The position numbers were made by a program, and so were the translations under genes. From Eledone cirrhosa (lineage: Eukaryota): a stretch of DNA of 64,000 nucleotides. Of the stretch, positions 10,576-62,699 are shown one piece after another. The DNA lies in contig OZ024750.1 in NCBI GenBank assembly GCA_964016885.1, positions 4,464,001 through 4,528,000 on the forward strand, given 5' to 3'. Below the pieces are notes generated by a model that made no database searches, was not told the origin of the DNA, and saw only the letters and a list, made by a program, of their open reading frames with translations. Within the stretch, counting starts at the first letter, position 1. Each line of letters starts with the position of its first letter.

Positions 10576-10641
10576 TATTTCATTATATATATTTCAGGGA
10601 TATCATATTAACAATATGCTATGCCTTCCTCAGACAAAATA
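10576..10641 (-). ncRNA. Minimal type I hammerhead ribozyme (mirror copy in the left arm)
   Basis: Reverse complement of 10805-10870. Confidence 0.72.
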
Positions 10642-10804
10642 CAATATAAACAGTTTTATAGATAAATAGATTCGACATACCGTAACAACATCTACTTGCA
10701 TTTGAGAAGGTTGATTTGGTAGACTACCAAATAAACCTTCTCAAATGCAAGTAGATGTTGTTACGGTATGTCGAATCTATTTATCTATAAAACTGTTTAT
10801 ATTG

Positions 10805-10870
10805 TATTTTGTCTGAGGAAGGCATAGCATATTGTTAATATGATATCCCTGAAATATATATAATGAAATA
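10805..10870 (+). ncRNA. Minimal type I hammerhead ribozyme
   Basis: TATTTTGT CTGAGGA AGGCATAGCATATT-GTT-AATATGATATCCCT GAAA TATATA TA ATGAAATA; predicted cut after 10862. Confidence 0.75.
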
Positions 10871-24523: not shown

Positions 24524-25199
24524 ATACACTCACATATATATATGTACTAAATTAATAGATTAATTAATTTATTATGATTCAATTAATTTTACTTTACTTT
24601 AACTAATTTCAATTTGAACTATGTCATGCTCAGAGAAAATAGACATGCCGGTATGTTGCGTGGATCCTTTTGGAAGCTAAGCCTTAACTTATTTAGTCGA
24701 GGAACCATTACTATAGAAAAGAAATACCCCAAAACAAACAGTTTTGCTCATGTACGTGCAGTACATATTACAAAAACTATAGAATCATACAAACACTAAC
24801 AAAGATGTGAAGGGGGAAATCTGAAAACTATACATGAAATATTATACAGAAGCATTGGGAGTAAAGATAATATCTATTGAAGATGAATAATTAAGGGATT
24901 ATAAATAGAAATACCTGGTCAGGCTACAGGTAGCAAATTGCTTTACTTTAGAAGAGAGATCTGGACTTCTTATGACATTTAAAATTATTATTTCTGAAGA
25001 TTCCTATTGTTTTAAATAAATTAGAAACGACCTACAGCCAATCCTTACACACATACACACGCATATATATAAACATATATATATAAATGGAATTAGGATT
25101 GGTGCTCTGAAATAGCGATGTATACATGAATGTATGTATAGTATATTTGGCAATATACTGTGTTTAATTAAAAACATTCTATAAGAATCCAGCTTCTAT

Positions 25200-25293
25200 A
25201 ATTTTCGGCGGAAGCAGGGGGTGCGTGGTTCTGATGAACGCCAACCAGTGTGAAACGAACAGTCAACCTCTCTCCCTTCTTTCGCCGAAAATA
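25200..25293 (+). ncRNA. Extended type I hammerhead ribozyme with canonical core and GUC cleavage site
   Basis: TATTTTCGGCGGAAGCAGGGGGTGCGT GGTT CTGATGA ACGC-CAACCA-GTGT GAAA C-GAACA-G TC AACC TCTCTCCCTTCTTTCGCCGAAAATA. Proximal stem I is GGTT/AACC, followed by an internal loop and distal stem I (25200-25212/25281-25293). Predicted cut after C25264. Confidence 0.82.
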
Positions 25294-25475
25294 AGTAAGT
25301 GACATAGTCACTAGTTTAAAACTGATAGCGTATGGTCTTCTAAATGTTTTTAATTAAACCTACGGTATATTGCCAAATATACATACTGTACATACTAGAA
25401 GGACTAACAAGCCACGCCCGTGATGGTCATGTTTAAGTATCAAGCAATGGCATTACTCGAAATCGAGTTGCAACC

Positions 25476-41217: not shown

Positions 41218-41587
41218 TTAAAGAGTTAAACAAGATTCAATGAGTATATCAAAGAATGAGTTTTACAGTAGATTGGAAGCACTCTACAGGAAAAAAATTA
41301 TTTTCCAGAGTTATATATATTAAAATACAAATATTAATAAAATAGATGTTATTTTGATCAATTAAATTTTATTATACATATTTCAGAGGTACAGCAGTAC
41401 GTCCTCATCAGACGTACTGTTGTACCCCTGAAATATGTATAATAAGATTAAATCTTAAACATTTAACATCTCAGGGTATGTCATGCATCATTATATTTTG
41501 TCTGATGAGGGCGTACTATTGTACCTCTGAAATATGTATAATAAAATTTAATTGATCAAAAGAACATCTATTTTATTAATATTTGTA

Positions 41588-43941: not shown

Positions 43942-44620
43942 ATAATTGTTTCTACTTTAGGCTCAAGGCCAGAAATTTGAAGAGGAGGGGTAAGTCGATT
44001 AAATCGAACTCCAGTGCATTACTGGTACTTTATTTTATCGACCTCGTATGGATGAAAAGCAAAGTTAACTTCGGCGGGATTTGAACTCAAAACATAAAGG
44101 GACGTAACTCTATGGCACGAGGCAGGCTGCCCAACGCTCCACCAACTACCACCAATCCATCGCCCATTTCTAATAATAATTGTTTCTACTTTTGGCACAA
44201 GGCCAGCAATTACCCCAGTGTATTACTGGTACTTTATTTTATCGACCCCGTAAGGATGAAAAGGAAAGCAAACATCGACGGGATTTGAACTCAGAACATA
44301 AAGGGCTGTAACTCTATGCCGCCAAGCAGGTTGTCCGATGCTCCATCAATTACTGCTAATCCACCGCCAATTTCTATTAATAATTGTTTCTACTTTAGGC
44401 ACAAAGCCAGCAATTTACCCAGTGCATTACTGGTACTTTATTTTATCGACCCCGTAAGGATGAAAGGCAAAGTTAACCTTGGCGGGATTTGAACTCAGAA
44501 TGGCAAGGGACGTAACTATGCTGGAAAGCATGGCGTCCGACCCTCTACCGATACTGCCAATCCACCGCCCTAACATGGCGTCCGACCCTCTACCGATACT
44601 GCCAATCCACCAATTTCTAT
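43942..44620 (-). mobile_element. Tandem array of three SINE family 1 copies plus a partial head duplication
   Basis: Units ~43942-44165, 44175-44368 and 44380-44570; head repeat 44574-44612. Confidence 0.88.
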
Positions 44621-51195: not shown

Positions 51196-51262
51196 TATTT
51201 TATTATACATATTTCAGAGGTACTGAGTTAACTTCAACAGTACGTCCTCATCAGATAAAATA
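51196..51262 (-). ncRNA. Minimal type I hammerhead ribozyme (mirror copy)
   Basis: Reverse complement of 51380-51446. Confidence 0.77.
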
Positions 51263-51379
51263 AGATGATGCATGACATACCCTGACATAGTAGATAGTTA
51301 AGATTCAGTCATCGTTCAGTCATTCTACCATGACTGAATCTTAACCATCTACTATGTCAGGGTATGTCATGCATCATCT

Positions 51380-51446
51380 TATTTTATCTGATGAGGACGT
51401 ACTGTTGAAGTTAACTCAGTACCTCTGAAATATGTATAATAAAATA
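51380..51446 (+). ncRNA. Minimal type I hammerhead ribozyme
   Basis: TATTTTAT CTGATGA GGACGTACTG-TTGAAGTTAACT-CAGTACCTCT GAAA TATGTA TA ATAAAATA; perfect 8-bp stem I; predicted cut after 51438. Confidence 0.8.
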
Positions 51447-56650: not shown

Positions 56651-56916
56651 TGATCGTAAGTCCAACATACTTACCACTAGACCACCCAACAACAACAACA
56701 TATATAATGAAATCAATAAACTAACAAACTACGTCAACAAACAACAAAAGCAGCCCAATGACGACAGCAAGCTTATTTAGTTTTACGTATGTGCCGACCA
56801 TTGCTAAGCCAGCTAAGCTAAATCTTAATCTCTGACCCATACTGTATGTATATTGGCCTCACTGTGACAAAACTACGACTAATCAACGATTGATAGATAA
56901 AGAGATATGATAGATA

Positions 56917-58470
56917 TGTTTCTTTATTAGCCACAGGGCACAAAAGAAGGGGACAAATACAAAGGGGGAAGTTTACATACAATAAAAACGTGTAAAATAC
57001 TATCACAAATGCAATTTAAAAATCAATCGATTTTCCCCAATAGGGGGAGACATTTCATATGGGTAACACATACACCCGAAAAAATGTGCAACCCTCATCT
57101 CCAGAAAGAGATATGATAGATAGATAGATAGATAAATTTCTTTATTAGCCACAAGGGCACAAAAGAGAGGGACAAATACAAATGGGGAATTTACATACAG
57201 GTATATGAAAATAAAACTATTAATAAAATAACAAATAACAATTGATATCCCCGATAGGGGGGAGGCGTTACACAGGGGTTGTACACACCCCGAAAAAATG
57301 TACAACCCTCCTCTCCAGGAGCACCAAGAGTGAGTACTCCCTTCCTCTCTTCCTCTTTTTCCTCAACCTACAGGCTTATATAGAGAGAAGGCCCAAACAC
57401 TCGGGCCATCTTTGCCACATTCACCCACCTTTTATAAAATTTGCTGGGGTACAGCACCTCTCTCTCCATCCTGATTCTTCTTCCAAAATGATATTTGAAA
57501 AAACGAATCAGTTGCTCGCCGGAGAGAAAAGTGTCTGACCTCAGCCTTTTAACCTCATCCACCATACAACCTCTTTCACCATAGCCACAACACATAGGAA
57601 AAGACAGACAGATAGATAGACAGACAGATAGATAGACAGATAGAGAGATAGAGAGATAGGTAGGTGCATGCATGCACAAATGGATATATTTCTTTATTAG
57701 CCACAAGGGCGCACAAGAAAAGGGGACAATACAAAGATATACCGGGGATTTTACATACAGTCGTGTAAAAAATATAAAAACAAACAATTACAACAATCGA
57801 AATCCCCAATAGGGGGAGGCCCCACAAATGGCATGCATGGTCAAATAGGTAGAGAGCTAGAGAGATAAATGTGATAGATAGATTTCTTGACAGATAGATA
57901 GATGTGACAGATAGACAGAGAGAGAGATAGATAGATAGATGTGATAGATAGACAGAGAGATAGAGAGAGAGAGAGATAGATGGATTGGAGAGTGAGATAA
58001 ACAGACACACAGATAGATATATAGACATACATACATATAGATAGACATATATATAGATATATAGACATACATATAGATAGACATATATATAGATAGATAG
58101 ACAGACATATATATAGACATATATAGAGAAAACTTTCTTTTTATTTGCCACCAGGGCGTCAAAGAGTGGGACAAGTACAATGGGGGGGGGGTTACATAAA
58201 AAGGCGTCCTCAATAAGGAGGAGGCAATAACAAAATATAAAAATATAAAATATAACAAAAATAAATTGAATAACAAAATCCTCAATAGGGAGGAGGCGCC
58301 TTGGGGGGTCGCACACACCCCCGAAAAAAGTGTGCAACCCTTTCTCCTCAGGAGCACAGAGAGAGGGTGCTCCCTTGATCTTTCATCTTTCTCACCTACA
58401 GTCTGATGTAGAGTGAAGGCCCATTCACACAGGCCATTCTCGCCACTTTCACCCATCTTTCATAGAAACG
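56917..58470 (-). mobile_element. Four stacked 5'-truncated L1/Tx1-like LINE 3' ends separated by (ATCT)n-type microsatellite
   Basis: Copies ~56917-57106, 57137-57600, 57688-57825 and 58133-58470 share the tail (G)CCCT(T)GTGGC.AATAAA.GAAA. Copy 2 encodes FLCVVAMVKEVVWWMRLKG / LRSDTFLSGEQLIRFFKYHFGRRIRMEREVLYPSKFYKRWVNVAKMARV, similar to Tx1 ORF2 C-termini. Confidence 0.65.
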
Positions 58471-62646: not shown

Positions 62647-62699
62647 CTGCTATATATATTTCGGTGACAGCCATCTTTGGCTGTGACCTCTTCAGGCAG
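62647..62699 (-). ncRNA. Minimal type I hammerhead ribozyme
   Basis: Minus strand CTGC CTGAAGA GGTCACAGCCA-AAGA-TGGCTGTCACC GAAA TATATA TA GCAG; 10/11-bp stem II; reads toward (TA)n at 62484-62535. Confidence 0.8.

Follow-up and report, generated by a model that had tools for sequence, protein, structure and literature searches.

A type I hammerhead motif in Eledone cirrhosa lies within a two-armed copy of a retrozyme family with Penelope-type insertion ends

The hammerhead and its surroundings

The window analysed is a stretch of 64,000 nt of contig OZ024750.1, and the features at the locus under study are listed in Table 1. The motif has the CUGANGA, GAAA and NUH core elements of the type I class and helices I to III, with helix I open. 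An earlier note on this DNA had claimed an intact extended hammerhead with a canonical core and a GUC site. This was borne out when the motif was parsed base by base, and the strict motif was found in none of 100 block shuffles of the window (a looser match of any sort was found in 3 of 100). The claimed stem I layout and 6-nt loop II are seen in the sequence and on folding, and stem III does have 2 bp. The extended stem I, with its long distal helix beyond the internal loop, has a z score of -3.18 and was equalled in stability by 1 of 200 shuffles. The sequence at 25227-25268 is a genuine type I hammerhead, with a predicted cut site after C25264.

Table 1. Features of the insertion and its hammerhead (window coordinates; c, position in the unit counted from the cut site)
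Feature	Position	Strand	Details
(TA)n microsatellite at left junction	25063-25088	.	Likely insertion target; TA repeats follow most 3' ends of the family
Inverted, 5'-truncated arm	25089-25175	-	Unit about c71-c169; 'long' 3' end, tail of about 30 nt
Direct, 5'-truncated arm of the ~315-nt unit	25176-~25395	+	c226 through the cut site to about c128; 'short' 3' end
Extended stem I enclosing the hammerhead	25201-25291	+	Distal helix, internal loop, proximal 4 bp
Type I hammerhead	25227-25268	+	GGTT (25227-30), stem I 5' strand; core CTGATGA (CUGAUGA), 25231-37
Stem II of hammerhead	25238-51	+	ACGC-GTGT, one G.U; loop CAACCA, 25242-47
GAAA core stretch	25252-55	+	Hammerhead motif scan
Helix III of hammerhead	25255-25263	+	2 bp (A-U, C-G), loop GAACA
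Predicted cleavage	after C25264	+	GUC cut site; AACC (25265-68) next
GTAAGT	25295-25300	+	Donor-like family sequence, no evidence of use

The Rfam comparison proposed in the earlier note gave a hammerhead-type match: HH9 aligns with 25213-25286 over all 77 model positions (E = 5e-4). The score of 24.1 bits falls below the gathering score of 52, and no Rfam family matches at its gathering threshold anywhere in the window. Another copy of the same repeat, L005, scores 26.2 bits against HH9. The geometry of loop II and stem I also aligns with HH9; several consensus contact bases differ. Most HH9-type consensus contact bases are likewise missing from the mussel retrozymes that have been described (PMC7229834).

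The sequence is, as had been claimed, unlike that of the window's other ribozymes, which are of a different type. These are three foldback pairs of minimal hammerheads (10584-10862, 41370-41540 and 51204-51438) in which helix II is long and the loops of helix III read TATATA/TATGTA. Their motifs recur in the GIY-YIG loci L100 and L079, and they are likely to be other Penelope-derived elements. There is also a minimal hammerhead on the minus strand at 62651-62695 (CTGAAGA...GAAA, TATATA loop) that adjoins a TA microsatellite. Two tandem repeats lie in the window, one of 204 nt at 44011-44517 (2.5 units), made of a SINE-like repeat that is frequent in the window, and one of 214 nt at 56892-57318 (2 units).

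The 315-nt repeat family

A genome search with 25150-25450 as the query gave 3,252 first-look candidates, and the closest of the 40 that were scored are 92-95% identical over 25176-25386. The helix III 16-mer of the family has 1,047 exact matches in the genome (control, 2), so the copy-number check called for earlier gives at least 1,047 copies; the corresponding 16-mer of the window copy has one match, itself (control, 3). Two sets of loci were examined, L001-L030 being the best hits to the window copy and L032-L061 the first 30 exact 16-mer matches on one contig. In all 30 best-hit loci the shared sequence ends at the unit edges, other small repeats excepted.

The unit is non-coding and about 315 nt long, successive cut sites in the trimer L054 being 315 nt apart. 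In L054 and L005 units are arranged head to tail, with the 3' end joined to 5' sequence and no ORF; most sampled copies are monomers or short arrays. There is no Penelope-type ORF adjoining the family unit in any of the 61 loci L001-L061. A single type I hammerhead, a unit within the range of about 150-450 nt and both tandem and dispersed copies are the features of a non-LTR retrozyme unit, and the family has all of them.

Stem I covaries among the 48 parsed copies, with GGCT/AGCT in 27 and GGTT/AACC in 6, and the cut site takes the GTT form in 23 of 69 copies. One subfamily (e.g. L012, L037, L049 and L056) has U10.1.U11.1 at the base of stem II together with a GUU cut site; axolotl HHR_Amex2 also has U.U at this position. 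The circular-monomer fold of L054 (-66.9) is near that of its shuffles (-60.8 ± 5.5). Loci L025 and L026 (G000:C1, 442.04 Mb and 441.70 Mb) are 99.6% identical over 3.2 kb including flanks and represent either a segmental duplication or an assembly duplicate. A window-wide repeat search was dominated by microsatellites.

There is a sister family with a unit of 310-311 nt (L036:1-870, L059:430-1340 and L107-L156) that is 66-70% identical to the 315-nt family over the whole circle. Its hammerhead has 19,077 exact matches (control, 0), giving at least 19,077 copies. The units form pure 310-nt arrays of up to 14, arranged head to tail and with an inverted junction, and there are no mismatches among 5-6 adjacent units. 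These arrays are very young. Helix III is a perfect palindrome and the cut site is GUA. The distal stem I is kept through a different paired sequence, the tail motif is kept too, and the circular-monomer fold (-67.8) is well below that of shuffles (-46.8 ± 4.2). A third type of hammerhead, in which stem II begins TTTCT, was seen at L097:685, L101:7633-7645 and L103:6266; it bears a weak resemblance to the sister family (E 0.04) and is possibly another related repeat.

Insertion ends

The window copy is a single two-armed insertion (25089 to about 25395) in which the arm ending at the long site lies beside the TA repeat and is joined to the arm ending at the short site. The stretch 25089-25186 is the reverse complement of the downstream part of the unit, and 25136-25186 pairs with 25336-25386. 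The inverted arm leaves the hammerhead uncovered and the predicted fold of the hammerhead is unchanged when the arm is included. The claim that the ribozyme is not masked by antisense therefore stands, while the claim that it is not in a foldback holds in part, since an inverted arm is present. No clear target-site duplication was seen by eye at the window copy.

The 3' ends were mapped in 57 loci: 56 from L001-L061, from which five duplicates had been dropped, and L063. The 86 outer ends include four sister-family pieces, and BLAST blurs ends by about 10 nt, into TA repeats; with this resolution, 70 of the 86 fall into two clusters about 30 nt apart (42 at c121-140 and 28 at c164-171). Most of these clustered ends go straight into (TA)n, and the remaining 16 ends lie elsewhere. 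The sister family has end sites identical to these two. The 5' ends are variable, and an inverted arm is present in many insertions. Of the two-armed insertions, 15 with both ends clean were picked by hand (eight truncated or complex ones were left out); in 11 of these 15, a long end is combined with a short one.

Insertions of Penelope-like elements (PLEs) have been described as having 5' truncation, an inverted arm, a tail of 30-40 nt on one end and a bias to microsatellites (Craig et al., 2021, PMC8557442). In vitro, the tail has been reported to correspond to the sequence that separates two internal start sites of the RT, and hammerhead cleavage was dispensable for insertion (Frangieh et al., 2024, PMC11167929). 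The family has the same footprint, namely a tail defined by two 3' ends, an inverted arm, 5' truncation and an AT-rich target, and by analogy its ends agree with the published PLE insertions (PMC8557442) and with the pair of start sites seen in vitro (PMC11167929). Because the 3' ends lie off the ribozyme cut site, the priming of cDNA was likely set by a protein and not by the cut. The tail of about 30 nt, conserved between two families that are 66-70% identical, is a likely protein-recognition site.

Origin of the window copy

Taken together, the data suggest that the window copy is very probably one 5'-truncated, two-armed copy of a non-LTR retrozyme, likely copied in trans by a PLE protein with RT and GIY-YIG domains, and likely a dead end rather than a ribozyme used by the host. 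The parts of this proposal that were observed directly are the family, its 315-nt tandem units, the fixed 3' ends, the inverted arms, the TA targets, the lack of an ORF and the changes in loop III. The remaining steps would be as follows. Tandem loci would be transcribed, and hammerheads would cut as pairs through a self-complementary helix III. The multimeric or circular RNA would then be bound by a Penelope-type protein, which would nick (TA)n and start cDNA at either of the two internal sites, to give one long and one short arm. As the window copy has one hammerhead, unit-length RNA cannot be released from it; cleavage of a read-through transcript by the monomer may still occur. By its sequence the family qualifies as a metazoan non-LTR retrozyme that would work like a non-autonomous Penelope derivative, with the window locus as a monomer derivative.

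The earlier note had suggested a retrozyme or the 5' end of a Penelope element. A Penelope-related retrozyme agrees with these data. The 5' end of a coding Penelope does not, as there is no adjoining ORF and the 3' ends lie 130-170 nt past the cut. Neither the window copy nor 60 other loci has the ORF with RT and GIY-YIG between pLTRs that an autonomous PLE would have.

It could still be argued that the copies are not a self-contained unit at all, and are instead the 5'-truncated pLTR ends of an autonomous PLE outside our sample. The footprints are identical to those of PLEs, and PLE pLTRs are reported to carry type I hammerheads (PMC4209133). The genome has many Penelope-like ORFs with GIY-YIG (PF01541), of which the best 150 of 10,596 candidates were scored, and a second Penelope-like family, for which the best 150 of 26,347 were scored; this sampling also counts in favour of such an element. 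No pLTR related to either retrozyme family was found with an nhmmer profile of both in the 75 PLE loci sampled (45 + 30), which represent a few families, and the lack of an autonomous helper with a related pLTR among them counts against the retrozyme reading. However, in the head-to-tail units of L054 and L005 the 3' end meets 5' sequence without an ORF, the sister family forms its long pure arrays, and none of the family copies at 61 loci runs on into an ORF. An origin as pLTR ends is thus unlikely.

The only strong match of the profile in the 75 PLE loci was at L063, with weak matches to the hammerhead core at L101 (E 0.04) and L169 (E 0.045). The L063 unit was not accepted as a pLTR, since other copies of the PLE at L063 stop at this TA tail and lack the unit; this looks like a unit inserted in the TA tail of another family. 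There is a 938-aa open ORF at L092:2808-5622 on the minus strand with RVT_1 (RT), a CxxC linker and GIY-YIG. The second Penelope-like family is of high copy number, and at G000:C5:12579810 and neighbours it has open frames of 905 aa with 95-98% identity. Long ORFs of these two types are candidates for recently active helpers.

The GTAAGT sequence

A consensus splice donor had been claimed immediately after the ribozyme. GTAAGT is present at the claimed position, which is about 30 nt past the cut site and not adjacent to it, and the hexamer occurs 14 times on the plus strand and 15 times on the minus strand of the window. It is found in 55 of 69 distinct family copies, which makes it a sequence inherited with the repeat and not a peculiarity of the window locus.

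In the full unit there is a TTTCAG 121 nt downstream of GTAAGT, and an intron of Penelope type could run between the two in the family RNA. Retained 5' introns can occur in PLEs (PMC8557442; PMC4209133), and the acceptor-like motif is conserved in the sister family. The sister family, however, has ATACGT at the aligned donor position, and the conservation of TTTCAG is explained by its place in the conserved tail that separates the long from the short 3' end. A spliced junction has no match in the genome at up to 2 mismatches, a weak test because PLEs retain introns. The intron of D. virilis Penelope is described as ending 5' of helix I, on the opposite side from GTAAGT (PMC4209133). In the window copy TTTCAG is present in antisense only, in the inverted arm (25107-25112), and there is no sense acceptor. 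A true 5' splice site is very unlikely and the intron reading of the earlier note is not supported; GTAAGT is likely to be incidental and unused.

Changes private to the window copy

The window copy differs from the column majority at 4.8% of positions, with 6 private positions in 207. Among 66 other copies the median is 4.2%, and 38 lie closer to the majority than the window copy does, so its divergence is ordinary. Three of the six private changes (25257, 25258 and 25261) lie in loop III. These abolish the self-complementary helix III of the family, the predicted homoduplex going from -6.9 to -0.5 kcal/mol. A fourth, C>T at 25249, gives the G.U in stem II and lowers its stability from -4.2 to -2.3 kcal/mol. 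Contigs from unlabelled sequencing runs have the family alleles at the private sites, and among the sequence pieces listed from these runs none bridges the loop III variant at 98%; the variant may be shared by other individuals or may be an error of the assembly.

In nearest-neighbour energies, which ignore tertiary contacts, the active fold of the monomer is predicted to cost 4.2 kcal/mol in the window copy, the second lowest value of 48; the median for the other 47 copies that were parsed is 8.8 kcal/mol. The cost is lower because the family CAGA in loop III can no longer pair with the UCUG of the core. This gives some support, as a prediction, to the claim that this is the best candidate for activity. 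Cleavage of a monomer of the window copy in vitro is about as likely as not. Coral and mussel motifs are reported to cleave as monomers (PMC7229834).

A dimer route has been invoked for hammerheads with a short helix III (PMC4209133; PMC7229834), and in Xenopus one of nine predicted retrozyme dimers was reported to cleave in vitro (bioRxiv 10.64898/2026.07.22.740005). The suggestion that dimerization may be needed fits the family. It does not fit the window copy, where loss of the self-complementary helix III makes rescue by a dimer unlikely. When whole molecules were cofolded in pairs, none of the three copies used gave an active dimer fold, an uninformative result. At the window locus there is one hammerhead, whereas other family loci have the two in tandem that Li et al. 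(2026) call 'active'.

These changes bear on whether the host has taken over the ribozyme. One possibility is early domestication: through the change in loop III, a transposon ribozyme gated by dimer formation would have become a monomer that acts alone and cuts a host transcript at the locus, whether or not the donor is used. The core, with its GUC site, is intact, half of the private changes are in loop III, the active fold is predicted to be cheap, and the new loop III would fit a GNRNA pentaloop pattern. That the cluster improves the predicted monomer fold is unusual for neutral decay and was counted against the retrozyme reading. The probability of such a cluster in any stretch of 5 nt is about 0.016, calculated post hoc. 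However, a single multi-base mutation would explain the cluster without selection, an intact core is expected by chance in about 64% of cases at this level of private change, the divergence is ordinary and stem II is weakened by the private G.U. No host gene was seen (none of 45 window ORFs matches Pfam), although a location in a long intron would still be compatible. We give this possibility a very small chance.

A more specific form of the idea is that loop III of the family acts as a lock, pairing with the core in a lone copy and opening in pairs, and that the mutation cluster released the lock to give a stand-alone cutter of host transcripts, the first step of domestication. This is highly unlikely. 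HH9 and HH10 ribozymes are low-copy and conserved. The window ribozyme, in contrast to domesticated ribozymes of this kind, belongs to a repeat of more than 1,000 copies and falls short of the Rfam gathering score, and the earlier suggestion of a domesticated intronic ribozyme has no support. Any host role for it is a very slim prospect, and the locus is an ordinary one, with one copy of decayed age of an already known kind of element.

Relation to known systems

The closest known systems are the metazoan non-LTR retrozymes of coral, mussel and axolotl (Cervera and de la Pena, 2020, PMC7229834), which have also been surveyed in vertebrates (bioRxiv 10.64898/2026.07.22.740005). As described there, they share with the present family a non-coding unit of 170-400 nt, low GC and a type I hammerhead, with a short helix III and a self-complementary loop, and they range from monomers to multimers in thousands of copies. 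The window copy differs in being a lone monomer that has lost the palindrome. The insertions of the family also differ: they have inverted arms, their 3' ends are fixed at two sites and lie in (TA)n, and they show no clear target duplication.

The pLTR ends of EN+ PLEs, as described (PMC8557442; PMC11167929; Cervera and de la Pena, 2014, PMC4209133), have in common with the family 5' truncation, partial tandems, an inverted 5'-truncated arm, the 30-40-nt tail on one end, AT or microsatellite targets and a hammerhead upstream of the RT start sites. The family, in contrast, has no ORF, and its hammerhead has a canonical 4-bp stem II and 6-nt loop rather than the minimal form. The amniote intronic HH9 and HH10 ribozymes (Rfam RF02275) share the type I topology, the 6-nt loop II and the stem I internal loop with the window copy, which differs from them in its score (24 bits against 52), its high copy number and its ordinary divergence.

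Among the papers listed in the literature searches, none describes an octopus retrozyme in its title or the opening of its abstract. The link between Penelope proteins and retrozymes has so far been argued from co-occurrence and pLTR similarity (bioRxiv 10.64898/2026.07.22.740005), and the end map of this family is one more case for the copying of retrozymes by Penelope-type proteins. Loop III of the family and loop III of the window copy form a natural test pair for dimer gating in hammerheads.
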